Positions 3,112 to 51,746 of a stretch of 64,000 nucleotides of DNA are shown here, in pieces. Numbering within the stretch: position 1 is the first letter of the stretch; the number at the start of each line of letters is the position of its first letter. Origin of the DNA: Leucoraja erinacea (taxonomy: Eukaryota); NCBI RefSeq assembly GCF_028641065.1, contig NW_026576285.1, positions 1-64,000 of the forward strand, in the 5' to 3' direction. The notes under the pieces are model-generated. The model was given only the letters and a program-made list of their open reading frames with translations, had not been told where the DNA came from and did not search any database. Made by a program: the position numbers and the translations under genes.

Positions 3112-3378
3112 CCCAGATGATAGTCTTCCCACCGGGCAGGCTGCTGTGATCAACATGACAGGAATACTGTTTCCCATCATACGGATCATACTCAAGGACA
3201 GACTTGAGATGATATGTTCCATCGTTGTTGGGTATGACCCCAGAAGATTTGGTCTCAAAGACATGGTGGCCATTCTGCAACCAGCTGACATTGATGGCCG
3301 GTGGGTAAAATGCAAACACAGTGCAGTACAGGATTGAATGATCATCAGTGCGGGCAGCGAGTGTGACCTCAGGTGAAA
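3112..3378 (-). CDS. MHC class I-like gene, exon 4 (alpha3 Ig C1-set domain)
   Basis: Acceptor tctcactgtcttgcag|, 267 nt, donor TGG G|GTAAGA. Encodes VSPEVTL...LYCTVFAFYPPAINVSWLQNG...PNNDGTYHL...YSCHVDHSSL...W, with the C1-set motifs C-x4-FYP, W, PNxDGTY and YxCxVxH. Confidence 0.96.
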
Positions 3379-13119: not shown

Positions 13120-13395
13120 CTTTTCTGGTCAGGTATGTCTTTCCAATTGCATAGTATGTATGCCATAGATCCACACAGTCATGTTCTAACAAGCTCTTGA
13201 AATAACGGTTCATTTTTTCATTCTTGTCCCATTTCTCTTTGAAGGGTTCAGCTATTGGATCATGCACCGTCCACTTTAGTTTGTCCTTGTCAAAACTAAA
13301 TGCATATCTTCCGTCAAAAGCCAACTTCAATATCCCTAAATTGGGACTGTGATCGTTCACCTGACAACCAAACTGACCTTGAGTATAGTGATAAT
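13120..13395 (-). CDS. MHC class I-like gene, exon 3 (alpha2 domain)
   Basis: Acceptor ttttgtttttctttcag|, 276 nt, donor G|GTGAGT. Encodes YHYTQGQFGCQV...LAFDGRYAFSFDKDKLKW...FKEKWD...LLEHDCVDLWHTYYAIGKTYLTRK, with the C101/C164 pair, Q96, A-F-D-G, K146 and W147. Confidence 0.95.
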
Positions 13396-16375: not shown

Positions 16376-17278
16376 CACATTAGGGGCAATTTATATTTAT
16401 ACAAAGCCAATTAGCCGACAAACCTGTATGTCTTTGGAGTGTGGGAGGAAACCAAGATCTCTGAGAAAACTCAAGCGGTCACGGGGAAAACTTACAAACT
16501 CCATACAGACAGCAGTCTTGTACCTTGGTCTATGGCACTGTGAGGCAGCAATATGTTTGGAGAAGTTGGAAGAATTCTGCCTGCGGCAGAAACACCACTA
16601 CAGAATGCCGACCTGATCCTATATTAACGATGGTTCCAGGTTCCTTTGATGGAATTAAGAAAGGAAAGAAACCCTGGATATATGCCCCAGGTGTGAAATA
16701 AGCTCATATTTGTTACAAGGACAATTACTTTAGTTTAGGTTAGAGATAAAGCATGAAAACAGACCCTTCAGCCCACTGTGCCCTCATCGCCCAGCAATAT
16801 CTGTACATCAGTACTATCCCACATACGATTACAATCTACAATTTTTACCGAAGCCAATTAACCTACAAACATGTGAGTCTTTGGATTGTTGGATGAAACT
16901 GGAACAATTAGAGAAAACCCTCACAGTCACGAGGTCAATGTACAAACTCCGTACCGACAACACCCGGAGTCAGGATCGAACCCAGGTCTCTGTAGCTGTG
17001 AGGCAGCAACTCTACCACTGTGCCACCATGCTACCCTGTGTCATTAGTATTGTGTGTTGAAATGTTTCCATCAGTGATTTTACTTCGGAGTCGCGTGAGT
17101 GACTACGTGAAGAACCCGCTCAGTGCGCAGGCGCGGCATTACGCCAGCAGTGCAACAGCGGCGGCAGCTGGAGTCAGGCTCTCCAGCTGCACTTTAAAAC
17201 GGACCGTCAGGTAAGTAGACGGTGCGTTGGGATAACAGAGGAGAGTCGCATTTAGTGTTTTGCAGGATTTCACAGAAC

Positions 17279-18517
17279 ATGTCTCAACGCAGAAAACTCT
17301 CGTATAGAACTGCCCGCGCTTTAACTCCACCAGAGGAGCGTTCAATTCCAGCGGGGCAGCAACCGGCGGCAGCGTCGCTCTCAGAGCGTTTCGCTATCCC
17401 CGAGACCGAGCCTGACCCAGTCACACCAGAGTCTGCACGGCGGACTGGGAAAGCGGCCAGGAAGACCAATCGGCCGGTCGAATCCGATTCGTCGGAGGGG
17501 GACATGTCTCCCCCAAAGCGGAGGAGAGACAGCCGCCTGAGCTGCATTCAGCAGCTCCTGGAGGAGATGGTCTACCGGGAACAGCAGCGCTCCCGGAGAG
17601 ACAGGACAGGTACCTCCTCCATAGTGTCGTGTCAGGCACTGCCCTTTGCTACCTCATACCAGAAGGCTAGCATTGGTGACCAGGGCAGGGCTGGTCTGGA
17701 ACAGGGGCAGGCGGACAAAATCGTGAGTATGCATGGGGTGCAGGAACAGGAACAGCTGTTGGGTGTGGTGGACCGCTTCGTAGCAACCCCACGGGCTGGA
17801 GCACCGCTGGAGCCAAAAATGGCAGCCAGTATTAACCACCTATCCAATAAACCTCTACTGGAAAAGGTGCTCGCCGAGGTGCTGGAAGAACATACAGCAC
17901 CAGAGAACTGTGAGGCCCTTAAGGGAAAAAGCCTCAACAGCCAAATCTGGGGAAATGTGGGGGCCCCTATTCGGGCACAAGAACTCAAGCTACAGCGGAT
18001 CCTAAGGCTCCTGACGTCAGCTATCACAGCCTTTGCTCGTTCTGTGGAGACAACGGAGATGAGTACACACCAGCAGGATGTCCTGGCATTAATGTGTACC
18101 ACACAATTCGAACTGAACAATCTCCGGAGGGAAAATATAAGACCTGCCCTCAATCCCAAATTTGCTGGCTTGTGCAAAGCCCCAGCTGCGGAGGCTGACT
18201 CACTGCTGTTTGGGAAAGATCTGAACAAAAAGCTGATGGACATGGAAGAGGCATCAAAAACCTTCGGCCTCATGAGGGCAGGCCACGGGACGAGCAAACC
18301 ACGACCTCCGATACCCAAGCGGCAGCACCCCACGGCATCCACCAGTCGACGTCTGGAATATGGGACTGGTGAACGCTTGGGGCCGCATTATCCCCAAAGA
18401 TCTTTTTTAGATAAGGGCCCGCCGCGGACCCCCTGGAAAATGCGCCTCCCCCCAACATCGCCAGCACGTCATCAGAACAAAGCACTCAGAAAACAGAAAA
18501 GACAAAACCGCCAATAA
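17279..18517 (+). CDS. DIRS gag-like ORF1
   Basis: Open frame of about 412 aa from the first ATG (MSQRRK...), first ORF inside the DIRS termini. Contains LNNLRRENIRPAL and LLFG-type motifs. Confidence 0.8.
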   Translation: MSQRRKLSYRTARALTPPEERSIPAGQQPAAASLSERFAIPETEPDPVTPESARRTGKAARKTNRPVESDSSEGDMSPPKRRRDSRLSCIQQLLEEMVYREQQRSRRDRTGTSSIVSCQALPFATSYQKASIGDQGRAGLEQGQADKIVSMHGVQEQEQLLGVVDRFVATPRAGAPLEPKMAASINHLSNKPLLEKVLAEVLEEHTAPENCEALKGKSLNSQIWGNVGAPIRAQELKLQRILRLLTSAITAFARSVETTEMSTHQQDVLALMCTTQFELNNLRRENIRPALNPKFAGLCKAPAAEADSLLFGKDLNKKLMDMEEASKTFGLMRAGHGTSKPRPPIPKRQHPTASTSRRLEYGTGERLGPHYPQRSFLDKGPPRTPWKMRLPPTSPARHQNKALRKQKRQNRQ

Positions 18518-18519
18518 CC

Positions 18520-19850
18520 AAGGAGGTAGGTGGGTCTGGTTCCTACCAGCATATAGAGAATAAGGGTGCCTTACTAACAGGGGGGAGATTACACTTGTTT
18601 AAAAAAGCATGGGGGATGATCACGAGTGACAAGTATATACTCAACAGCATTAGAGGATATAAAATACAGTTTATATCAGAATCAACACCGCCAGTTCAAC
18701 ATTGGCCCGAAAGGGTATTTTCTCCCTCCAAAAAAGAGCAACGGGAGGGACAAGCTGAACTGGTGAGACTTATAAATAAGGGGGTCATAGAAAAGACCAA
18801 ACATGAACCCTTGGGATTTGTATCCAATATATTTACCAAAACCAAAAAAGATGGTGGATGTCGCATCATCATTGACTTAACAAGTTTGTTAAGTATATAC
18901 ATTTCAAAATGGAAACATTTGTGACTGCTAGACAACTGATTTCAAAGGATACTACATGGCAAGCATTGATCTCAAGGATGCTTACTATCTAGTACCCATA
19001 CATAAGGATCATAGCAGATACCTAAAATTTATCTGGATGGGGCAGCTGTGGCAGTACAAAGCATTGCCTAATGGGCTCATGTCAGCCCCAAGATTGTTCA
19101 CAAAAATATTGAAGCCAGCCATGGCAATATTAAGGAAACAAAAACATATAGTCATGGCATATTTGGATGATATCCTCATAGTAGGGAAAACTATGGAATT
19201 AGCTGTGGCAGCAGTCTCAGCTACAAAACAGCTCCTTGAAACTCTGGGATTCGTCCTACATCCAGATAAATCCAAGTTAAATCCATCCTCTATTATGGAC
19301 TAGCTGGGGTTCACAATTAACTCAGTCCAAATGACTATTACCCTGCCAAGGGAAAAGATGATTGCATTAGCACAATCATGCAATTAATAGTCAACAAAAG
19401 ACCAACTATTCGACAAGTAGCAACAGTAATTGGTAAAATGGTAGCAGCATTTCCGGCTACACAATTTGGACCTTTGCATTATCAAAATTTACAAAGAGCA
19501 AAGGTGCAGGCACTAAAACAACATAAAGGTCACTATGATCGGGTCATGATGTTACCCACGGAAGCAATATCAGAGCTACAGTGATGGACACAAAATGTTT
19601 GGCATAGTTTTAGTCCTATTATCATTACTAATCCTACTTTAGTTCTTCAAACAGATGCCAGTGCTCAAGGCTGGGGAGCAACTAACTCCATATCCAGCAC
19701 AAGTGGTAGATGGACTAACTCAGAATCATCATTACTATCTACACTGGGCATTAACTATTTAGAAATGTTGGGCGCCTTTTATGGTTTAAAAGCATATGCA
19801 TCAAATATGCAGCACTTGCATGTTCGATTACAAATAGATAATACTATATT
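18520..19850 (+). pseudogene. DIRS reverse transcriptase / RNase H, disrupted
   Basis: Motifs GGRL, KKDGGCRIIIDL, SIDLKDAYY, LPNGL, YLDD and TDAS-GWG are split across frames, with stops at 19301 and 19582. A probable start ACCATGG appears as ACCAAGG 2 nt after the gag stop. Confidence 0.9.
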
Positions 19851-19856
19851 ATCCAT

Positions 19857-20426
19857 ATGGGCGGCATAAAATCTTTATCATGCGACAAATTGGTCAATAT
19901 GATTTGGCAATGTTGTGTCGAAAGACATATTTGGCTTTCAGCTACCTATCTACCAGGTAAGCTAAACACAGTGGCAGACACCAGGTCACGCAAATTCAAT
20001 GACAACATCGAATGGATGTTAAATCCTAAAGCATTTGCTAAAATTGTCAAGCAATATGGAACGCCAGATATCGATTTATTTGCATCAAGACTAAATCACC
20101 AGTTAACTATGTATGTCGCTTGGGAACCAGATCCAGAGGCAGCAGCGGTAGATGCCTTCACGCTGGATTGGGGAAAGTTCTTTTTCTATGCCTTTCCTCC
20201 CTTCTGCCTCATCAGTCGGGTACTTCGCAAAATCCAGATGGACTCGGCTTCTGGTATTTTGGTGGTACCCGACTGGCCTACACAGCCATGGTTCCCAGTA
20301 CTACATGACATGGTGGTGGAATCACCAATGGTGTTTCCCAGTCATCCAGGACTATTGGTTCACCCAGTGTCAGGCATAAGCCACCCATGCCATCAAGACA
20401 TTAAACTCCTGGGTTGCAGATTCTGA
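19857..20426 (+). CDS. DIRS RNase H C-terminus plus N6-adenine methyltransferase-like domain
   Basis: YLPGKLNTVAD, DIDLFASRLNHQL, DAFTLDW, YAFPPF and VVPDWPTQPWFP motifs, typical of the DIRS1 MT domain. Confidence 0.85.
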   Translation: MGGIKSLSCDKLVNMIWQCCVERHIWLSATYLPGKLNTVADTRSRKFNDNIEWMLNPKAFAKIVKQYGTPDIDLFASRLNHQLTMYVAWEPDPEAAAVDAFTLDWGKFFFYAFPPFCLISRVLRKIQMDSASGILVVPDWPTQPWFPVLHDMVVESPMVFPSHPGLLVHPVSGISHPCHQDIKLLGCRF

Positions 20427-21337
20427 ACAGACCCTACCTGGACCTGGGATTATCCAAACAAACCATCACCACCATGTCAGCATCCCTGCGAACATCTACC
20501 AAGAGGCAGTACTTAACCAGCATCAAAAAATGGGAGAAGTACTGCCAGGAAACAGGGACATCATATGAAACAGCCACAGTAACCAACGTATTGGAGTTCC
20601 TGGCCTATCTACACCATCATGAAGGGATCAGCTACAGTGCCATCAATACGGCACGCAGTGCTCTTTCCGCGTACCTCAAACCAGCAGGACATCAGGCCAT
20701 GGGATCCCATCCACTGGTGGTTAAACTGATGAGGGGCATTTACAACATCAAGCCCCCTAAGCCCAGGTATACCCATATTTGGGACATCAGTGTCATCCTG
20801 GCATACCTCAGGGAATGGCCGCCAGCTAGATCCCTCAGCCTCGAGCAATCAACACTGAAGACGCTCATGCTGATGGCACTGGTATCTGCTCAGAGGGTCC
20901 AGTCACTACACAAATTGAGACTGGACAACATGAAAACAACTCCAGACCAGATAACATTCATTCTACAAGGTCTGGTGAAACAAAGCAGGCCAGGAACATC
21001 CAATTCACTAGTGGTATTCCGGGCCTACCCACCAGAGCCACGATTGTGTGTGGTGGCCCATCTACTACAGTATATAGACACAACCCACAACATCAGAGGG
21101 AGTGAACAAGCCTTATGGGTCAGCCACAAAAAACCTCATGGCCGGGTAACAAGCCAAACCATCTCAAGATGGCTAAAACAGGTATTGGAAGCTGCTGGGA
21201 TAGATATTAACACCTTTAAATCTCATTCCACTAGGGCAGCCTCCACATCAACAACAGCTAGGATGGATGTACCTATTGACCCCATCCTGAATGGTCGAGG
21301 GAATCCACATTCCGAACATTCTATAATAAGCCATTGA
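20414..21337 (+). CDS. DIRS tyrosine recombinase (C-terminus frameshifted)
   Basis: SAM-like N-terminus (INTARSALS), catalytic R in SAQR, and HSTR. The frame drifts before the expected W and catalytic Y. Confidence 0.88.
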   Translation: MQILNRPYLDLGLSKQTITTMSASLRTSTKRQYLTSIKKWEKYCQETGTSYETATVTNVLEFLAYLHHHEGISYSAINTARSALSAYLKPAGHQAMGSHPLVVKLMRGIYNIKPPKPRYTHIWDISVILAYLREWPPARSLSLEQSTLKTLMLMALVSAQRVQSLHKLRLDNMKTTPDQITFILQGLVKQSRPGTSNSLVVFRAYPPEPRLCVVAHLLQYIDTTHNIRGSEQALWVSHKKPHGRVTSQTISRWLKQVLEAAGIDINTFKSHSTRAASTSTTARMDVPIDPILNGRGNPHSEHSIISH

Positions 21338-23960: not shown

Positions 23961-24265
23961 TTTAAGATGTTAAAGATATCCAGTGATGTGTGACTGCTCT
24001 ACCTTTCCTTGGTATTCTTAGGTGATTCATTCCCTCTGGCATAAAAAAGCTTATGCCAACCAGTAGCAATAAGGAAGGGACAAAACTTGGATGATGTTTT
24101 AACTAACCATATAACCATATAACAATTACAGCACGGAAACAGGCCATCTCGGCCCTACAAGTCCATGCCGAACAAATTTTTTTCCCCTTAGTCCCACCTG
24201 CCTGCACTCGTACCATAACCCTCCATTCCCTTCTCATCCATATGCCTATCCAATTTATTTTTAAA

Positions 24266-27142
24266 TTATACCAATGAACCTGCCTCCACCACTTCCACTG
24301 GGAGCTCATTCCACACCACCACCACTCTCTGCGTAAAGAAGTTCCCCCTCATATTACCCCTAAACTTCTGTCCCTTAATTCTGAAGTCATGTCCCCTTGT
24401 TTGAATCTTCCCTATTCTCAAAGGGAAAAGCTTGTCCACATCAACTCTGTCTATCCCTCTCATCATTTTAAAGACCTCTATCAGGTCCCCCCTTAACCTT
24501 CTGCGCTCCAGAGAATAAAGACCTAACTTATTCAACCTATCTCTGTAACTTAGTTGTTGAAACCCAGGCAACATTCTAGTAAATCTCCTCTGTACTCTCT
24601 CTATTTTGTTGACATCCTTCCTATAATTTGGCGACCAAAATTGTACCCCATACTCCAGATTTGGTCTCACCAATGCCTTGTACAATTTTAACATTACATC
24701 CCAGCTTCTATACTCAATGCTCTGATTTATAAAGGCTAGCATACCAAAAGCTTTCTTTACCACCCTATCTATATGAGATTCCACCTTCAAGGAACTATGC
24801 ACGGTTATACCCAAATCCCTCTGTTCAACTGTATTCTTCAATTCCCTACCATTTACCATGTACGTCCTATTTTGATTTGTCCTGCCAAGGTGTAGCACCT
24901 CACATTTATCAGCATTAAACTCCATCTGCCACCTTTCAGCCCATTTTTCCAAATGGCCTAAATCACTCTGTAGACTTTGGAAATCCTCTTCATTATCCAC
25001 AACACCCCCTATCTTAGTATCATCTGCATACTTACTAATCCAATTTACCACACCTTCATCCAGATCATTGATGTACATGACAAACAACAAAGGACCCAAC
25101 ACAGATCCCTGAGGCACCCCACTAGTCACCTGCCTCCAACCCGATAAACAGCCATCCACCATTACCCTCTGGCTTCTCCCATTCAGCCACTGTTGAATCC
25201 ATCTTGCTATTCCTGCATTTATACCCAACAGTTGAACCTTCTTAACCAACCTTCCATGAGGAACCTTGTCAAAGGCCTTACTAAAGTCCATATAGACAAC
25301 ATCCACTGCTTTACCCTCGTCAATTTCCCTAGTAACCTCTTCAAAAAATTCAAGAAGATTAGTCAAACATGACCTTCCAGGCACAAATCCATGTTGACTG
25401 TTCCTAATCAGACCCTGTTTATCTAGATGCTTATATATATTGTCTCTAAGTATCTTTTCCATTAATTTGCCCACCACTGAAGTCAAACTAACAGGTCTAT
25501 AATTGCTAGGTTTACTCTTAGAACCCTTTTTAAACAATGGAACAACATGCGCAGTACGCCAATCCTCGGGGACTATTCCCGTTTCTAATGACATTTGAAA
25601 TATTTCTGTCATAGCCCCGGCTATTTCTACACTAACTTCCCTCAATGTCCTAGGGAATATCCTGTCAGGACCTGGAGACTTATCCACTTTTATATTTTTC
25701 AAAAGTGTCAGTACTTCTTTTACTTTGAACCTCATAGTATCCATAGCTACTCTACTAGTTTCCCTTACCTCACATAATTCAATATCCTTCTCCTTGGTGA
25801 ATACCGAAGAAAAAAAATTGTTCAATATCTCCCCCATCTCTTTTGGCTCTGCAGATAGCTGTCCACTCTGTCTCTCCAATGGACCAATTTTATCCCTCGT
25901 TATCCTTTTGCTATTAATATAGCTGTAGAAACCCTTTGGATTGACTTTCACCTTACTTGCCAAAGCAACCTCATATCTTCTTTTAGCTTTTCTAATTTCT
26001 TTCTTAAGATTCTTTTTACATTCCTTATACTCCTCAAGCACCTCATTTACTTCATGCTGCCTATAATTATTGTAGATCTCCCTCTTTTTCCGAACAAGAT
26101 GTCCAATTTCCCTTGAAAACCAGGGCTCTTTCCAATTTTTACTGTTTCCTTTCAACCGAACAGGAACATAAAGATTCTGTACTCTTAAAATTTCCCCTTT
26201 AAATGTCCTCCATTTCTCTTCTACATCTTTCCCATAAAACAAAATGTCCCAGTTCACTCCTTTTAAATCATCTCGCATCGCATCAAAGTTAGCCTTTCTC
26301 CAATCAAAAATCTCAACCCTAGGTCCAGTTCTGACCCTCTCCATAATTATCTTGAAACTAATGGTATTGTGATCACTGGACCCGAAGTGCTCCCCAACGC
26401 ATACCTCCGCCACCTGTCCCATCTCATTTCCTAACAGGAGGTCCAGCACTGCCCCTCCTCTAGTAGGTACCTCTATGTATTGCTGCAAAAAACTATCCTG
26501 CACACATTTTACAAACTCCAACCCATCCAGCCCATTTACAGAATGTGTTTCCCAGTCTATGTGTGGAAAGTTGAAATCTCCCACAATCACTACCTTGTGC
26601 TTACTACTAATATCTGCTATCTCCTTACATATTTGCTCTTCCAATTCTCGTTCCCCATTTGGCGGTCTATAATACACCCCTATAAGAGTTGCTGCACCTT
26701 TCCCACTTCTCAATTCCACCCAAATAGCCTCCCTAGATGAGCCCTCCAATCTATCCTGCCAAAGCACTGCTGTAATATCTTCCCTGACTAGCAATGCAAC
26801 ACCTCCACCTCTTGCCCCTCCAATTCTATCACACCTGAAGCAGCGAAATCCTGGAATATTTAGTTTCCAATCACAGCCCTCCTGCAACCACGTTTCACTG
26901 ATCGCCACAACATCATACTTCCAGGTGTCTATCCAGACTCTAAGCTCATCAACCTTTCTTACAATGCTCCTAGCATTAAAATATGCACATTTAAGAAAAC
27001 CCCCGTCTCTTATTCTCTGTTTATTTCCTTTTTTTTCTTTCTCCTCTTGTGTCCGAGTGCTTCCCATTTCTGCTTCCTGCCTCCCATTCTGTCTACTACC
27101 TTTCGCTATTTGAGTCCCTCGCCCCAACCATTCTAGTTTAAA
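24266..27142 (-). CDS. CR1 ORF2 (APE endonuclease + reverse transcriptase)
   Basis: Motifs NARS, ISETWL, GDFN, SDH, KSPGPD, QHGF, DFSKAFD, PQGS and YADD. The frame is open across the ORF1 stop and ends in a late premature TAA. Confidence 0.93.
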   Translation of the reverse strand, partial: FKLEWLGRGTQIAKGSRQNGRQEAEMGSTRTQEEKEKKGNKQRIRDGGFLKCAYFNARSIVRKVDELRVWIDTWKYDVVAISETWLQEGCDWKLNIPGFRCFRCDRIGGARGGGVALLVREDITAVLWQDRLEGSSREAIWVELRSGKGAATLIGVYYRPPNGERELEEQICKEIADISSKHKVVIVGDFNFPHIDWETHSVNGLDGLEFVKCVQDSFLQQYIEVPTRGGAVLDLLLGNEMGQVAEVCVGEHFGSSDHNTISFKIIMERVRTGPRVEIFDWRKANFDAMRDDLKGVNWDILFYGKDVEEKWRTFKGEILRVQNLYVPVRLKGNSKNWKEPWFSREIGHLVRKKREIYNNYRQHEVNEVLEEYKECKKNLKKEIRKAKRRYEVALASKVKVNPKGFYSYINSKRITRDKIGPLERQSGQLSAEPKEMGEILNNFFSSVFTKEKDIELCEVRETSRVAMDTMRFKVKEVLTLLKNIKVDKSPGPDRIFPRTLREVSVEIAGAMTEIFQMSLETGIVPEDWRTAHVVPLFKKGSKSKPSNYRPVSLTSVVGKLMEKILRDNIYKHLDKQGLIRNSQHGFVPGRSCLTNLLEFFEEVTREIDEGKAVDVVYMDFSKAFDKVPHGRLVKKVQLLGINAGIARWIQQWLNGRSQRVMVDGCLSGWRQVTSGVPQGSVLGPLLFVMYINDLDEGVVNWISKYADDTKIGGVVDNEEDFQSLQSDLGHLEKWAERWQMEFNADKCEVLHLGRTNQNRTYMVNGRELKNTVEQRDLGITVHSSLKVESHIDRVVKKAFGMLAFINQSIEYRSWDVMLKLYKALVRPNLEYGVQFWSPNYRKDVNKIERVQRRFTRMLPGFQQLSYRDRLNKLGLYSLERRRLRGDLIEVFKMMRGIDRVDVDKLFPLRIGKIQTRGHDFRIKGQKFRGNMRGNFFTQRVVVVWNELPVEVVEAGSLV

Positions 27143-28065
27143 GTCTCCCCAGCTGCCTTTGCAAATTTCCCCGCTAGGATATTGGTCCCCCTCGGGTTCA
27201 AGTGCAACCCATCCTTGCTGTACAGGTCCCACCTTCCCCAAAAGAAGTCCCAATGATCCAGGAACTTGAATCCCTGCCCTCTGCACCAGTCTTTCAGCCA
27301 CGCATTTATCCTCCACCTCGCTCCATTCCTACTCTCACTGTCGCGTGGCACAGGCAGTAATCCTGATATGGTTACCTTTTTGGTCCTTTTTTTTAACTCT
27401 CCTCCCAACTCCCTAAATCCTCCCTTCAGGACCTCTTCCCTTTTTTTTCCTATGTCATTGGTACCTATATGTACCACGACCTCAGGCTCCTCTCCCTCTG
27501 ATTTAAGGATATCTTGGATGCGTTGAGTCACGTCCGAGACCTTGGCACCAGGGAGGCAGACCACCATCCTGGTCTCCCGACTGCGTCCACAGAATCGCCT
27601 ATCCGACCCCCTAACAATAGAGTCCCCAATTACTATGGCCCTCTTTTTTTCCCTAGCTTTTGGAGCAACAGGGCCGGTCTCTGTGCTGGAGGCCCGTCCG
27701 CTGTCACTACCCCCGGGTAGGCTGTCACCCCCATCTGTACTCAAACAGGAGTACTTATTTGCGAGGTGTACCGACATTGGAGTACTCACTCGTTCCTGCC
27801 TCTGCCCCTTGCCCTTCCTTAACGTGACCCACATGTCTCTCTCCCGTGGTTTTGGTGTGACCACCTCTCTATAACTCCCCTCTATGACCTCCTCACTCTC
27901 CCTGATCAGAGCGAGGTCATCGAGCTGCTGCTCCAGGATCCTAATACGGTCCCTTAGGAGCCCCATCTCGCTGCACCTGGTGCAGATGTGGACGTCTGGA
28001 AGGCCATCCGACACCATGACCTCCCACATCTGACATCCAGAACAGTATACTGCTCTGACTGTCAT
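27133..28065 (-). CDS. CR1 ORF1 (zinc finger / coiled coil + SGNH esterase)
   Basis: CxxC...CxxC, a leucine zipper, and the motifs IGDS, PGA, HIGTND and DGLH. 310 aa, intact. Confidence 0.93.
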   Translation of the reverse strand: MTVRAVYCSGCQMWEVMVSDGLPDVHICTRCSEMGLLRDRIRILEQQLDDLALIRESEEVIEGSYREVVTPKPRERDMWVTLRKGKGQRQERVSTPMSVHLANKYSCLSTDGGDSLPGGSDSGRASSTETGPVAPKAREKKRAIVIGDSIVRGSDRRFCGRSRETRMVVCLPGAKVSDVTQRIQDILKSEGEEPEVVVHIGTNDIGKKREEVLKGGFRELGGELKKRTKKVTISGLLPVPRDSESRNGARWRINAWLKDWCRGQGFKFLDHWDFFWGRWDLYSKDGLHLNPRGTNILAGKFAKAAGETLN

Positions 28066-28424
28066 TCTCCCGCCTTACCCTGGATCTGATACCAGTATAA
28101 CACAATAGAAACTGCTGGGAGAAATCAGCAGGTATCTGACTCACAACAGCTGCTCCCTCGTGACCTTTAAACTGCACCTTTATTATATAAACAAAAAGCA
28201 CTGTACCTTTAGCCCACTGTACCCTTGGCTCACTGTACCTTTACTAAAGAACTGCACCTTTAACCCACTGTACCTTAACTAAAGCACTGCCCCTTTAACC
28301 AGAAAGCACAAATGCTAACCTGAGGTTGCACCCAATCAGCTGCTTCCTCTAGTCTGCTTCCACCAATCAGCGGCTTCCACCAGAACCCTCACTATGGAGT
28401 GTGGAACGTTACGGATTTTGGTAA

Positions 28425-28620
28425 GCCCTGACCCTCCTCCACTGTTCACCAACGGTCCTGGGCCTCTGTGAAAACAAGCCCCGCGCCCGATTTATATACT
28501 CACCGCCCTGACCCTCCTCCACTGTTCACCAACGGTCCTGGGCCTCTGTGAAAACAAGCCCCGCGCCCGATTTATATACTCACCGCCCTGACCCTCCTCC
28601 ACTGCTCACCAACGGTCCTT
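28425..28620 (-). repeat. 80-bp tandem monomers, CR1 5' UTR (~2.4 copies)
   Basis: gccctgaccctcctcc recurs at 80-bp intervals (about 28425, 28505 and 28585). Confidence 0.9.
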
Positions 28621-29229
28621 ATTAATTCCAATAAGAAACATCACAAACATTGATAGCTGAATACTAAGTAATAATGTTGTCATTAATGGTCCCCCTCCCA
28701 TTGGTATGGAACATTTTTATTTTTCAGCTTAAAATTGTGCAATATGGTGCATACTGTAGCGAGTCTTTTAACTTACACTTGAATGCAATGTATATGCTTT
28801 AAATTGTATTGGAGCATTTTTGAAAGGGGGGAGGCTGTGCAATCACTGATCACTGGCCTTGGGGGTACCCAGTGAGGGAGTGGAGCAACTGAGTGGGGAG
28901 AGGGTGTGGAAGAAGGTTGTCCCCCCTCCCAGGGTAGGAACTTTTTGAAATTTGATGTATTATAATCATGTTTTAGTGCACTGTAGAAGTATGATTTCAA
29001 TGTTTTTTGTATGAGGTATTTTTAAGAGGTAACTTTTTAAGGGGTAACTTTATCCACACAAAGGGTCCACACGTGTCAATTGGCCTGCACTGCCTTGTGG
29101 CAGAGAATTCCGCAGATTCACAACTCTCTGCGTGAAGAAAGTTTGTTCTCATCTCAGTCCTATTCTTATTCTTTAACTGTGACCCATGGTTCTGAACGCC
29201 CACAACATCGGGAACATTTTTCCTGCAGT

Positions 29230-29731
29230 TACAGTAAGTGAAAATCTAGCAGGCAAGCAGGATGCTTTCACCAACCACCCCAATTTGAAGTCCACTATCT
29301 TCCACTGTATCTATCCAGTGCTTGGTACTTACTTCCAGCAGCCACTGGTTGTCCTCCAGGATGCACCGAGCCCCAGCCTGATCCATGCCGGTCACCTGGG
29401 TGAATTCGGCACAGAGACTCTCACGGCAGCAGCGCAACGCTTCGCCGCCTCCGACGGCCCAGGACTCTTGCACTGAGGCTGCTCCATGGCCGGAGCTGCA
29501 ATGAGCAACTCGCCAGCCGGCAAACACTCGCCAGCCCCCGCTACCCGTCCGCATCTGTCCCCGCCGCTGCTTCTGCGTTCAACACCTGCGACCCATGCAG
29601 TTGATATGAGTTTTGACATTTTCGTTGATCACAGAATTTCTCACAACAGAGCGAGAGAAATTTGTGATCACCGTGAGAATTTGGTGAAATGCGTGATTCT
29701 CACGCTCAATGCATGGGAGTTGGCAGCCCTG
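29230..29731 (-). mobile_element. hAT-like DNA transposon end carrying the TDP2-like fragment (copy 1)
   Basis: Minus-strand terminus CAGGGCTGCCAACTCCCATGCATTGAGCGTGAGA with repeated TCACGC/GCGTGA subterminal motifs. The opposite TIR was not found. Confidence 0.55.
29333..29487 (-). pseudogene. TDP2: TDP2-like exon 1 fragment (UBA-like N-terminus), frameshifted
   Basis: GCCATGG start gives MEQPQCKSPGPSEAAKRC. After a frameshift it reads RESLCAEFTQVTGMDQAGARCILEDNQWLLE|GTAAGT, resembling TDP2 LCxEFxxVxxxDxAxAxCxLxxNxWxxE with a phase-0 donor. The exon is 155 nt, not a multiple of 3, and no downstream exons were seen. Confidence 0.72.
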
Positions 29732-30393
29732 CCTCTCTATCTCCCTCTCCCTCGTCCCCTTCTCTCTCCCCCTCTCTCTCACCCCTCCCCCTCCCCTCTC
29801 TCCCCTGTCTCACCCCTCTCCCCTTCCCCCTCTATTCTCTCTCCCCCCTCTCTCTCCCCCCACTCTCTCCCCACTCTCTCTCTCCCCCCTCGCTCTCTTC
29901 TCTCTATCTCCCTCCCACCTCACTCTCCTCCTCTCTCGTCCCTCTCTCCTCTCACTCTCCCCCTCTCTCTCGTCCCCTCTCTCCCTTCTCCTCCCCCCAA
30001 CTCTCTCTCCCCTCTCTTTCCCCTAACTCTCTCTCCCCTCTTTCCCCTAACTCACTCCCCCCTCTCTCTCCCCCCCTCTCTTTCTTCTCTCTCCCCCTCT
30101 TCTCTCTCTCTCTCTCTTTCTCCCTCTCTATCTCTCCCTCTCTACACAATCTCCCCTCTCTCTCTGNNNNNNNNNNNNNNNNNNNNNNNNNNNNNNNNNN
30201 NNNNNNNNNNNNNNNNNNNNNNNNNNNNNNNNNNNNNNNNNNNNNNNNNNNNNNNNNNNNNNNNNNNNNNNNNNNNNNNNNNNNNNNNNNNNNNNNNNNN
30301 NNNNNNNNNNNNNNNNNNNNNNNNNNNNNNNNNNNNNNNNNNNNNNNNNNNNNNNNNNNNNNNNNNNNNNNNNNTCTCTCTCCCCCCCTCTCC

Positions 30394-30450
<57 letters not shown>

Positions 30451-30500
30451 TCACCCCCCCCCCCCTCCCTGTCTCATTACCCCCTCCCACTCTCCACCAC
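29732..30500. repeat. CT-rich/poly-C low-complexity tract containing an assembly gap (N at 30167-30374)
   Basis: Seen directly in the sequence. Confidence 0.95.
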
Positions 30501-30504
30501 CCCC

Positions 30505-30825
30505 TGGGAGCTTCCGACGGCCCGTGACTTGCACTGTCCAGAGTGCTCCATGGCCAGAGCTGCAGTGAGCGACTCGTCAGCGCCGCAAGCACTCGACAGT
30601 CCCGGCTCCCCGCATCTGTTCCCGCCACTGGTTCTGCTCCCATCCCTCCCGCAGCCCCGGATCTCCAACACCCGCGGACCCTGCAGTTTATCCGAGTTTT
30701 GAAATTTTCGTTGATCACAAAATTTCTCACCGCTGAGTGTGAGAAATATCTGATCAGTGTGAGGGCGTGAGAGTTTGCTTGAGGGTGTGAGTCTCACACT
30801 CAAAGCGTGAGAGTTGGCAGCCCTG
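30505..30825 (-). mobile_element. hAT-like DNA transposon end with truncated TDP2-like 5' segment (copy 2)
   Basis: Terminus CAGGGCTGCCAACTCTCACGC. Colinear but diverged relative to 29445-29731, including GCCATGGAG at 30551 (MEHSGQCKS). Confidence 0.55.
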
Positions 30826-31611
30826 GATACCCCATCTAAGCTAGTCCCATTTACCCTGCAATGGGTAGAAACTGTATCACTGAAACCTTTCCCATGCAGT
30901 GTCTTTTAAATATTGTTATTGTACCTGCCCAACTGCATTATCTGGAAGGTCATTCCATATGCTGACCACTCTCTGAGCTCAAAGATTGCTCCCCAAGTTC
31001 CAATTAAATCTTCCCCCTCTCACAATAAACCCATGTCCTCTGGTAATTTATTCCCCTTCTCCCGGTAAAAGGCTCGGTGCATACACTATCAATTCCCCTC
31101 ATGATTTTAAAACACCCCTATATGATCACCCTTAGCCTCCTGTGCTCCATGGAATAAAGCCCTGGCTTGCCCAATCTCTCCCTCTTGTTCACACCCTGGA
31201 GCCCCGGCAATATGCTCATAAATCTCATAAACATAACAATGTTGCAGATAATATGGGCACCATGATTAATGCAAATAAAAAAATCTTATTTTTGAAGGCA
31301 ATATGATTCGATAAACATGGTTCAATGAATCTGACGATAATCCCATCAATGTCATTCACATTAATTCACATGTAATTTGAAAATAATAATAAATATTGCA
31401 AGAAAATATAATAATAAATATTGCATGGAAAATTGATAGAAATTATGCACAGCGCATAATATTTTGAGGTATTGTACACACCTTAACCTGTCCCAGGGTT
31501 AAAGATTAAATATAATTTGTATAATGTGTAACCAAAGAGGTAACAAAAAGCAATGTTTTAAAAAATAATTAATCATGAATCAGTGGTCATAATGAATACC
31601 CAAGGCATGAC

Positions 31612-39423: not shown

Positions 39424-39684
39424 TTGCTGTTTCGTTCTGCCTCCGCATCCATTCATCCACTTGCCCTTTGATGATTCCATGGAAACCGGTTTCGGTGAAC
39501 GTATCTGTTACCCAGTACTTCCGGTCAAATGCAGCCGCCATCCATTTCTGTCTTGGGACTGTAATGTCCATGTTGTTGTCATAATACTGTATCTCACAAC
39601 CGTCCAGAACACCCACAAAACTATATTCTTCTAGATGAGTACTCCTGTGGTTCAGGGTGTAGTAATAGATCAGTGTGTGAGGCC
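39424..39684 (-). CDS. MHC class I-like gene, exon 2 (alpha1 domain)
   Basis: Acceptor ttttatttgtgtctag|, 261 nt, donor A|GTTAGT. Encodes GPHTLIYYYTLNHRSTHLEEYSFVGVLDGCEIQYYDNNMDITVPRQKWMAAAFDRKYW...WMRRQNETA. Class I hallmarks present: H3, Y7, VGxLDG, PRQxWM, YW and the N86 glycosylation sequon. Confidence 0.95.
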
Positions 39685-48715: not shown

Positions 48716-49466
48716 GAAGTATATTTTTATGGCCCATTCTAGTGAGAATATTGATGAATGAAAAACAAGAAAACTGTTCTTTTGGACAGCACTATTATGG
48801 GGGTCACGGGGCAGTAGAGGTAGAGCTACTGCCTTACAGCGCCAGCGACCCGGGTTCGATCCTGACTACAGGTGCTGTCTGTATGGAGTTTGCACGTTCT
48901 CCCCGTGACCTGCATGGGTTTTCTCCAAGACCTTTGATTTCCTCCCACACTCCAAAGACGTACAGATTTGTAGGTTAATGGGCTTTGTGTAAATATTAGA
49001 TTGTGTGTCGTGTGTGTGCGTGCGCGCCTGCGTGTGGTAGCGATAGTGCGGTAATCGCTGGCCGGTGCGGACTCGGTGGGCTGAAGGGCCTGTTTCTGCT
49101 CTGTATCTCTGAACTAAAGTATTAACGTCTGTATCAAAACACTAAGGAAAATAAAGTCATCGAACACAGAAACTTGTGTCTGTGAGAGTGGTCAAGCACT
49201 AATCCCACACTAAACTGTTCCAAATGTTGCAGGAGTCCAGAACCAGGGGTCAGTTTAAAACTGAGGGGTAGGCTATTTAGAACTGAGATGAGGAAGAACT
49301 TTTTCAACCAGATAGTTGTGAATCTGTGGTATTTTCTGCCACAGAAGGCAGTGGAGACCAATTCATGGGATGGTTTCAAGACAGTTAGATTTAGCTCTTA
49401 GGGCTATTGGAATCAAATAATATGGGGGGGAAAGCAGGAACGAGGTAATGATTTTGTATGATCAGC

Positions 49467-49820
49467 CGTCGGAGAGCAGTGGAGGAGGGTCAGGGCGGTG
49501 AGTACTTAAATCGGGCGCGCGGGGCTTGTTTTCACAGAGGCCCAGGACCGTCGGAGAGCAGTGGAGGAGGGTCAGGGCGGTGAGTACTTAAATCGGGCGC
49601 GGGGCTTGTTTTCACAGAGGCCCAGGACCGTCGGAGAGCAGTGGAGGAGGGTCAGGGCGGTGAGTACTTAAATCGGGCGCGGGGCTTGTTTTCACAGAGG
49701 CCCAGGACCGTCGGAGAGCAGTGGAGGAGGGTCAGGGCGGTGAGTACTTAAATCGGGCGCGGGGCTTGTTTTCACAGAGGCCCAGGACCGTTGGAGAGCA
49801 GTGGAGGAGGGTCAGGGCTT
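49467..49820 (+). repeat. 80-bp tandem monomers, CR1 5' UTR (~4.4 copies)
   Basis: ggagagcagtggaggagggtcaggg starts at 49471, 49553, 49633, 49713 and 49793. Confidence 0.93.
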
Positions 49821-51746
49821 TTTTACCGAAATCCGTAACGTTCCACACTCCATAGGGAGGGTTCTGGTGGAAGCCGCTGATTGGTGGAAGCAGACTAGAG
49901 GAAGCAGCTGATTGGGTGCAACCTCAGGTTAGCATTTGTGCTTTCTGGTTAAAGGTGCAGTGCTTTAGTAAAGGTACAGTGAGCCAAAGGTACAGTGGGC
50001 TAAAGGTACAGTGCTTTTTGTTTATATAATAAAGGTGCAGTTTAAAGGTCACGAGGGAGCAGCTGTTGTGAGTCAGATACTGGCTGATTTCTCCCAGCAG
50101 TTTCTATTGTATTATACTGGTATCAGATCCAGGGTAAGGCGGGAGAATGACAGTCAGAGCAGTATACTGTTCTGGATGTCAGATGTGGGAGGTCATGGTG
50201 TCGGATGGCCCTCCAGACATCCACATCTGCACCAGGTGCAGCGAGATGGGGCTCCTAAGGGACCGTATTAGGATCCTGGAGCAGCAGCTCGATGACCTCG
50301 CTCTGATCAGGGAGAGTGAGGAGGTCATAGAGGGGAGTTATAGAGAGGTGGTCACTCCAAACCCACGGGAGAGAGACATGTGGGTCACATTAAGGAAGGG
50401 CAAGGGGCAGAGGCAGGAACGAGTGAGTACTCCAATGTCGGTACACCTCGCAAATAAGTACTCCTGTTTGAGTACGGATGGGGGTGACAGCCTACCCGGG
50501 GGTAGTGACAGCGGACGGGCCTCCAGCACAGAGACTGGCCCTGTTGCTCCAAAAGTTAGGGAAAAAAAGAGGGCAATAGTAATTGGGGACTCTATTGTTA
50601 GGGGGTCGGATAGGCGATTCTGTGGACGCAGTCGGGAGACCAGGATGGTGGTCTGCCTCCCTGGTGCCAAGGTCTCAGACGTGTCTCAACGCATCCAAGA
50701 TATCCTTAAATCAGAGGGAGAGGAGCCTGAGGTCGTGGTACATATAGGTACCAATGACAAAGGAAAAAAAAGGGAAGAGGACCTGAAGGGAGGATTTAGG
50801 GAGTTGGGAGGAGAGTTAAGAAAAATGACCAAAAAGGTAAAAATCTCAGGATTACTGCCTGTGCCACGCGACAGTGAGAGTAGGAATGGAGCGAGGTGGA
50901 GGATAAATGCGTGGCTGAAAGACTGGTGCAGAGGGCAGGGATTCGAGTTCCTGGATCATTGGGACTTCTTTTGGGGAAGGTGGGACCTGTACAGAAAGGA
51001 TGGGTTGCACTTGAACCCGAGGGGGACCAATATCCTAGCGGGGAAATTTGCAAAGGCAACTGGGGAGACTTTAAACTAGAATGGTTGGGGCGAGGGACTC
51101 AAATAGCGAAAGGTAGTAGACAGAATGGGAGGCAGGAAGCAGAAATGGGAAGCACTCGGACACAAGAGGAGAAAGAAAAAAAAGGAAATAAACAGAGAAT
51201 ATGAGACGGGGGTTTTCTTAAATGTGCATATTTTAATGCTAGGAGTATTGTAAGAAAGGTGGATGAGCTTAGAGTCTGGATAGACACCTGGAAGTATGAT
51301 GTTGTGGCGATCAGTGAAACGTGGTTGCAGGACGGCTGTGATTGGAAACTAAATATTCCAGGATTTCGTTGCTTCAGGTGTGATAGAATTGGAGGGGCAA
51401 GAGGTGGAGGTGTTGCATTGCTAGTCAGGGAAGATATTACAGCAGTGCTTTGGCAGGATAGATTGGAGGGCTCATCTAGGGAGGCTATTTGGGTGGAATT
51501 GAGAAGTGGGAAAGGTGTAGCAACACTTATAGGGGTGTATTATAGACCGCCAAACGGAGAACGAGAATTGGAAGAGCAAATATGTAAGGAGATAGCAGAG
51601 ATTAGTAGTAAGCACAAGGTAGTGATTGTGGGAGATTTCAACTTTCCACACATAGACTGGGAAACACATTCTGTAAATGGGCTGGATGGGTTGGAGTTTG
51701 TAAAATGTGTGCAGGATAGTTTTTTGCAGCAATACATAGAGGTACC
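49467..51746 (+). mobile_element. CR1 family A 5' half (monomers, ORF1 50147-51079, partial EN)
   Basis: Near-identical to 26470-28620. ORF1 is intact (310 aa), ORF2 has a TGA at about 51202, and the copy breaks at IEVP. Confidence 0.94.

Follow-up and report, generated by a model that had tools for sequence, protein, structure and literature searches.

The window, that is the whole stretch of 64,000 nucleotides from Leucoraja erinacea that was analysed (contig NW_026576285.1, positions 1 to 64,000), carries three minus-strand exons of an MHC class I-like gene (Table 1). The structure PDB 9ch4 matched the alpha-1 and the alpha-2 exon, each with an E value of about 1e-35 and far above nurse-shark-type and other class I chains, thus the host gene likely belongs to a nonclassical class I lineage. 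UDA, UEA, UFA and UGA are the nonclassical lineages named in passages of two reports (PMC10751288, PMC12562908); a CD1-like lineage of UFA/UGA type (PMC12562908) is a guess for the host gene. Two copies of a repeat with a fragment of TDP2 were located in the 26-kb intron between the alpha-1 and the alpha-2 exon, both in sense orientation to the class I gene, which confirmed the orientation given in an earlier note on this DNA. The same intron holds a plus-strand retroelement (17219-21337) with a gag-like open reading frame, a reverse transcriptase and a tyrosine recombinase (Pfam RVT_1 and Phage_integrase), likely of the DIRS type. A young, nearly full-length CR1-type LINE is present on the minus strand at 24104-28619; its 5' end carries an 80-base tandem repeat, and it has an ORF1 of 313 codons with a GDSL/SGNH esterase domain and a frame of 1,020 codons with endonuclease and reverse transcriptase. 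A sister of this LINE, 95 % identical, was observed at 49466-51211.

Both copies start with the same 14-base end, exact at 29718-29731 and at 30812-30825 on the minus strand. Eight matches with up to three mismatches occurred in the 64 kb, the two copies being the only ones without a mismatch. The alignment of copy 1 (29447-29731) with copy 2 (30510-30825) comprised 323 columns with 234 matches and 45 gap columns, an identity of 84 % outside gaps. The score of 216, with none of 200 shuffles exceeding 28, showed that the likeness is not due to chance. The copies are thus diverged and direct with a common end, as first described. The difference of 16 % outside gaps rules out a possible objection, namely that the assembly duplicated one copy across the N gap. 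The copies are arranged head to tail with about 780 bases between them, and no likeness was present between their flanks just past the terminal end. Subterminal CTCAC/GTGAG motifs, a pattern picked after the sequence had been inspected, were counted seven times per 120 bases in copy 2 and three times in copy 1, with a window mean of 0.29 (530 bins). Hence of the subterminal repeats of TCACGC type ascribed to both copies, those of copy 2 are dense and those of copy 1 weak. A hairpin at the end of copy 2 (z -2.9) is no more than a by-product of these motifs being present in both orientations.

Table 1. Features of the class I-like gene and of the two TDP2-bearing copies in the window
Feature	Position	Strand	Remarks
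MHC class I-like alpha-1 exon	39424-39684	-	PDB 9ch4, E 2.8e-35; upstream of the TDP2-bearing intron
MHC class I-like alpha-2 exon	13120-13395	-	downstream of the TDP2-bearing intron; phase 1 acceptor
MHC class I-like alpha-3 (Ig C1-set) exon	3112-3378	-	host gene
Copy 2, transposon-like 5' end	30676-30825	-	terminus 30812-30825; dense subterminal motifs
Copy 2, GC-rich leader, upstream ATG 30643 and first TDP2 codons	30510-30675	-	frameshifted, cut before the UBA codons
GA/G-rich low-complexity tract between the copies	29732-30509	.	includes the 208-base N gap 30167-30374
Copy 1, transposon-like 5' end and subterminal region	29590-29731	-	terminus 29718-29731; GC step near 29590; inner boundary approximate
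Copy 1, TDP2 exon-1-derived sequence	29333-29582	-	N-terminus and UBA profile positions 2-30 of 43; one stop, two frameshifts
Copy 1, GTAAGT donor and intron-1-like DNA	29228-29332	-	donor 29327-29332; high-copy too
CR1 LINE fragment	29078-29227	-	7 further window matches at 72-78 %; loose ends 29096, 29227
High-copy segment, likely inner right arm of the element	28700-29077	-	stops near 28700 without terminal repeat

The origin of the cargo was evident on the protein level. In a PDB search, the best match of the copy 1 exon was the UBA domain of TDP2 (6q00, E 0.0014; two matches up to E 10), and the Pfam profile UBA_4 was matched with 26 bits at a cut-off of 21.8. The best protein was the TDP2 of Leucoraja erinacea (P0002) with 88 % over 40 residues. 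In the UBA part, 31 of 35 residues were identical to P0002 and 27 of 35 to the TDP2 of Rhinoraja longicauda (P0007). The assignment of the fragment to TDP2 thus held, and an origin from another gene was dismissed. Likeness to the native protein ends at base 29333 and the GTAAGT donor comes directly after; the native protein covers the UBA profile from position 2 to 39. In both copies, the DNA that precedes GCCATGGAG matched the longer N-terminus of the Rhinoraja protein, thus the start of the cargo is at about 29582 in copy 1, and in copy 2 the upstream ATG is part of it. As this upstream stretch is itself derived from TDP2, the transposon-like part has a length of only about 140-150 bases. 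A transposon end of about 245-275 bp reaching to GCCATGGAG had been proposed; the distances, 241 bases in copy 1 and 271 bases in copy 2, were close to this range, but not all of this length is transposon. The Leucoraja TDP2 record begins at the MEQPQ methionine, which is the GCCATGGAG ATG. About 37 extra N-terminal residues of the Rhinoraja protein are present in the repeat copies too, so that N-terminal residues may be missing from the Leucoraja record.

Copy 1 runs through the UBA exon and the donor into about 100 bases of intron-like DNA, as had been noticed before, the exon being partial and broken, while copy 2 stops near 30510, short of the UBA codons. The retained donor and intron exclude a retrocopy and indicate that the capture, as already suspected, likely took place on the DNA level; both were also observed in further versions of the exon (P0003 and P0004) and at high sequencing depth. 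A functional TDP2 gene is not what the window holds: stop and frameshifts interrupt the exon, and a tblastn search of the window for the catalytic domain gave a best E value of 1.1 and no catalytic exon. A functional UBA-decoy peptide was considered and is unlikely, exon 1 encoding the UBA profile only from position 2 to 30 of 43. Open frames in P0003 and P0004 are to be expected among many copies and therefore no sign of such a peptide.

Three more diverged versions were found as predicted proteins (P0003, P0004 and P0005), of which P0003 and P0004 read into the same intron start. All three have a common short indel before the UBA that is missing from both native proteins, which is consistent with one capture event. 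Instead of a copy, P0003 may be another species' native exon 1 with read-through into the intron. Decay is visible in the comparison with the family: at the three listed positions in the UBA codons at which copy 1 deviates, the family majority restored in each case the native TDP2 residue of P0002, P0007 or both. Outside the CR1 piece 34 differences were listed, of which 20 were transitions, including 11 cases of CpG decay; this tally covers 40 of 286 differences, from which six inside the CR1 piece were excluded. Searches for chimeric proteins with the exon gave weak negatives: 2 of 10 candidates (92-2,000 aa) were obtained in the first search, 2 of 17 in the second, both native TDP2, and in the third two matches, a copy and an unrelated repeat protein of 371 aa.

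The stretch or a part of it was contained in 20 of 23 sequencing runs (11 studies, 7 coded organisms), with a best word share of 0.47. No run reached half of the sampled words, thus the depth counts come from relatives or other individuals. Depth was determined for the copy 1 region only, with contigs of the runs X1, X2 and X11 and RNA reads of X23 placed on 28630-29760 at 80 % likeness. The flank bin 28630-28667 had a summed depth of 22-32 in the three contig sets, resembling single contigs. The exon bins 29314-29465 presented on average 5,483 (X1), 10,567 (X2) and 7,529 (X11) times this depth. Short contigs in such assemblies overlap by up to 30 letters. Summed contig depth is not a copy number, and a worst-case correction for the overlap, a division by 31, gave ratios of 177, 341 and 243 for X1, X2 and X11. 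Depth in the intron-like bins 29238-29313 was 117,000-728,000, and as a rough second gauge the exon reached one fifth to one ninth of the depth of the CR1 piece. At five listed exon positions (29373-29461) at least 57-115 contigs per run carried the majority base. The exon-carrying family has at least hundreds of copies and likely thousands. A low-copy duplication, the outcome that would have spoken against a dispersed family, is excluded by a depth of at least 177-341 times the flank after correction. The single-copy-like depth at 28630-28667 may mean that those organisms possess the orthologous intron.

Depth dropped just past 29731 by 30.9-fold in X1, 15.2-fold in X2 and 15.4-fold in X11, thus the family begins at the common end. 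This sharp edge and the exon depth support the proposal that a repeat family disperses the 5' end of TDP2. End and exon are also joined elsewhere: a contig of X1 spans 29467-29644, and joints from 29518 to 29592 (X1, X11) and from 29542 to 29672 (X1, X2) link the two; no single contig across the whole element was among the contigs listed. Five of the 15 listed joints, the best 15 of 120, recurred in two runs as single contigs with depths of 21-69, which suggests insertions older than the split of the species concerned. Towards the interior, 28744-29047 had 0.83-1.51 times the exon depth, and one contig of X2 joined 28904 to 29450, the intervening letters matching both sides by eye. From this similar depth and the one contig, 28700-29077 likely belongs to the element. 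The bounds first given, 29230-30825, take in both 14-base ends, but high-copy DNA extends past the CR1 piece and down to near 28700. The CR1 piece was skipped by none of the joints listed (15 of 120), so it may be cargo, or copy 1 may be a mosaic. An X2 joint from 29225 to 29733 was considered as an empty site and rejected, because one side consisted of only 21 low-complexity letters.

A relative of the terminus was found on a metagenome contig (L001), where an element of 310 bases (1936-2245) has the same first 21 bases as the end of the copies. Its right end is an inverted partner matching in 11 of 13 bases, thus the end of the copies acts as a terminal inverted repeat elsewhere. The first 58 bases of copy 1 were 78 % and 41 bases of copy 2 were 88 % like this element, and its flanks agreed in only four of eight bases. 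By eye, the contig looks like fish DNA with kinase exons. Within the 64-kb window, no second, right-hand terminal inverted repeat was found, including a search by eye beyond the CR1 LINE at 24104-28619, and no target-site duplication, the 8-mers beside the left ends recurring at no plausible place. End-pattern scans yielded one locus in metagenome contigs (L001), none in genome contigs, and in viral contigs 0, 0 and 3 matches, the three failing to extend. A hAT transposase partner was not found in the prokaryote, virus and metagenome collections, which gave L001 and three non-extending matches of 17-18 bases, and no viral locus encoded a relative. For a SINE head derived from tRNA or 5S RNA, Rfam gave one match over 28300-31300 with an E value of 0.6, far below the gathering score.

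The end of the copies resembles, as we presume, the ends of fish hAT elements; the literature on hAT ends gave nothing confirming this likeness. Subterminal motifs repeated in both orientations, a hAT character, were present in both copies. Helitrons start with 5' TC and bear no inverted terminal repeat. The boundary at 29731 begins with CA. Two characters of Pack-TIRs were recognised, a cargo of about 350 bases (29228-29582), within the 100-5,000 bases asked for by Tan et al. 2021, from a parent, TDP2, that is known at the protein level only, and a donor with intron that speaks against a retrocopy. Both ends, a further character, are not to be found in the two truncated copies, so we do not file these as Pack-TIRs outright. 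The earlier description as a hAT-like Pack-type element agrees with the subterminal motifs and the cargo, but in the window it is not backed by a second inverted repeat or a target-site duplication. The element behaves as a Pack-TIR would, and membership of the family in the hAT elements and the Pack-TIRs is likely, if unproven. The end of the copies might also be situated upstream of native TDP2.

In our opinion the locus most probably contains two decayed and truncated copies of a high-copy family, in which a transposon-like end is combined with the first exon of TDP2 and the beginning of its intron 1; the family is likely a non-autonomous cut-and-paste DNA transposon, probably hAT. The identity of the fragment, the retained donor and intron, the high copy number, the sharp 5' boundary and the decay were observed directly; the vehicle, the capture route and the timing we infer. 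The interior of an ancestral element would have received, on the DNA level, about 350 bases copied from TDP2, namely from its GC-rich 5' end. Template switch or gap repair may have been the route, as proposed for multicopy Pack-TIRs in passages of Tan et al. 2021 (PMC8277862). The element would have kept its ends, and a transposase encoded at another place would have amplified it, likely at a time when several of the sampled species had not yet diverged; the copies would later likely have been methylated and then have decayed.

Capture and amplification of the same kind by a vehicle other than hAT, be it another inverted-repeat superfamily, a Helitron or Helentron, or an end-bypass chimera in which an element upstream of native TDP2 takes up adjacent DNA, is unlikely. 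The right end and the target-site duplication missing from the window are compatible with such vehicles, and bat Helitrons amplify the same kind of cargo, with 5' leader, first exon and a portion of intron 1, according to the relevant passages of PMC4224331. Against this alternative stand the first dinucleotide of the sharp boundary, CA and not the TC of Helitrons, the inverted partner of the same end in L001 and the prevalence of hAT elements, with 208 of 370 Pack-TIRs in 100 animal genomes, in the portion of Tan et al. 2021 that treats them (PMC8277862). Tandem or segmental duplication in the form of a satellite-like array or of duplicated blocks, instead of transposition, is very unlikely. 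The head-to-tail arrangement across low-complexity DNA and an assembly gap would agree with it, and contig depth is silent on where the copies lie, but the depth step at 29731 is sharp, a common upstream flank is missing, the divergence of the copies exceeds that of a homogenised array, and the class I intron holds no other TDP2 exon.

The earlier note had also raised a function of the copies as internal promoter or splice donor, or small RNAs against TDP2. That the copies act as internal class I promoter or splice donor, or that small RNAs of the family lower TDP2, is very unlikely. The sense orientation and the intact donor would permit it, the leader has a CpG observed/expected ratio of 0.8-1.0 versus 0.41 for the window, and in poly(A) RNA of X23 family reads were present on both strands of the exon, with depths of 10-21 per strand. 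Some Pack-TIRs form chimeric RNAs, as reported by Tan et al. 2021 (PMC8277862). Several results oppose a function. The donor of copy 1 is in phase 0 and the alpha-2 acceptor, and thus the class I intron, in phase 1; the frame fitting alpha-2 has no ATG after the last stop, and copy 1 is damaged by its stop, the frameshifts and CpG decay. RNA depth in X23 was 27-32 in the intron piece, near the 25-39 of the exon; no start-site pile was found over 28630-29760 and no RNA reads crossed the listed joints (best 15 of 120). These RNA data stem from a different organism or individual and cover 6 in 100 of a single run; none of 4,301 placed reads was 99 % alike. None of the suggested functions, promoter, splice donor and small RNAs, gained support, and the proposed connection to the 5'-tyrosyl intermediates of Helitrons was supported by no result. 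Reads on both strands, with similar depth in exon and intron piece, fit a passive transcription of scattered copies; they say little on the locus in the window and nothing on small RNAs. RNA reads over 28700-28970 were skewed to one mate orientation, unlike those over the exon (2.5 versus 33.6 in bin 28896-28933); perhaps one host transcript contains a copy. The copies in the window are most likely passengers in the class I intron without a role.

Elements amplifying host gene fragments are known from other genomes, here compared on the basis of the passages of the cited studies that describe them. Tan et al. 2021 reported four multicopy Pack-TIRs (1.4 %), for example Pack-hAT-N8_XT with 291 bases of the CAPSL 5' UTR in three copies (PMC8277862). 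The TDP2 family is like multicopy Pack-TIRs in having a few hundred bases of a GC-rich host-gene 5' end behind an inverted-repeat-type end, in several copies; unlike Pack-hAT-N8_XT, it has hundreds to thousands of copies and carries a coding exon with its donor. In the supplements of that study no skate and no TDP2 were found, and the elephant shark has 0 Pack-TIRs (PMC8277862). The Pack-TIR definition in the same source asks for both ends and a unique parent, thus the method would likely miss the TDP2 family. Similar in cargo and scale are HelibatN3 and other vesper-bat Helitrons with a promoter and first exon; HelibatN3 has spread the NUBPL promoter together with 5' UTR, first exon and a portion of intron 1 in about 1,000 copies (passages of Thomas et al. 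2014, PMC4224331). These are rolling-circle elements, whereas the TDP2 family has an inverted-repeat-type end and starts with CA. Rice Pack-MULEs, non-autonomous DNA transposons that amplify intron-bearing host gene fragments with a bias to GC-rich 5' ends (PMC8277862), are similar in the cargo and different as Mutator elements of plants. Compared to the skate TDP2 proteins (P0002, P0007), the repeat has the same exon end, but exon 1 only and no catalytic domain. No literature was found that links TDP2 to transposon capture or to elasmobranchs. The family is likely undescribed in the literature; it may already stand in a repeat library.

DNA transposons carrying gene fragments are thus a known kind, to which the TDP2 family likely adds an unusually high copy number for a vertebrate. 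Its distinction is the scale, which matches that of the bat Helitrons, together with the coding first exon of a DNA-repair gene, and it suggests that such families are under-counted in cartilaginous fish. There is a slim chance that thousands of CpG-rich TDP2 leaders, transcribed on both strands, feed the germline small-RNA system and that some serve as promoters or first exons. If true, the level of TDP2, which removes 5'-tyrosyl protein-DNA adducts, would be tied to transposon silencing. The family offers a test bed for the question of whether copies of a 5' exon in such numbers influence the gene they came from via small RNAs, an effect known from Pack-MULEs, or make new promoters. On the practical side, primers, probes, guide RNAs and read mapping for TDP2 exon 1 are confounded in skates.
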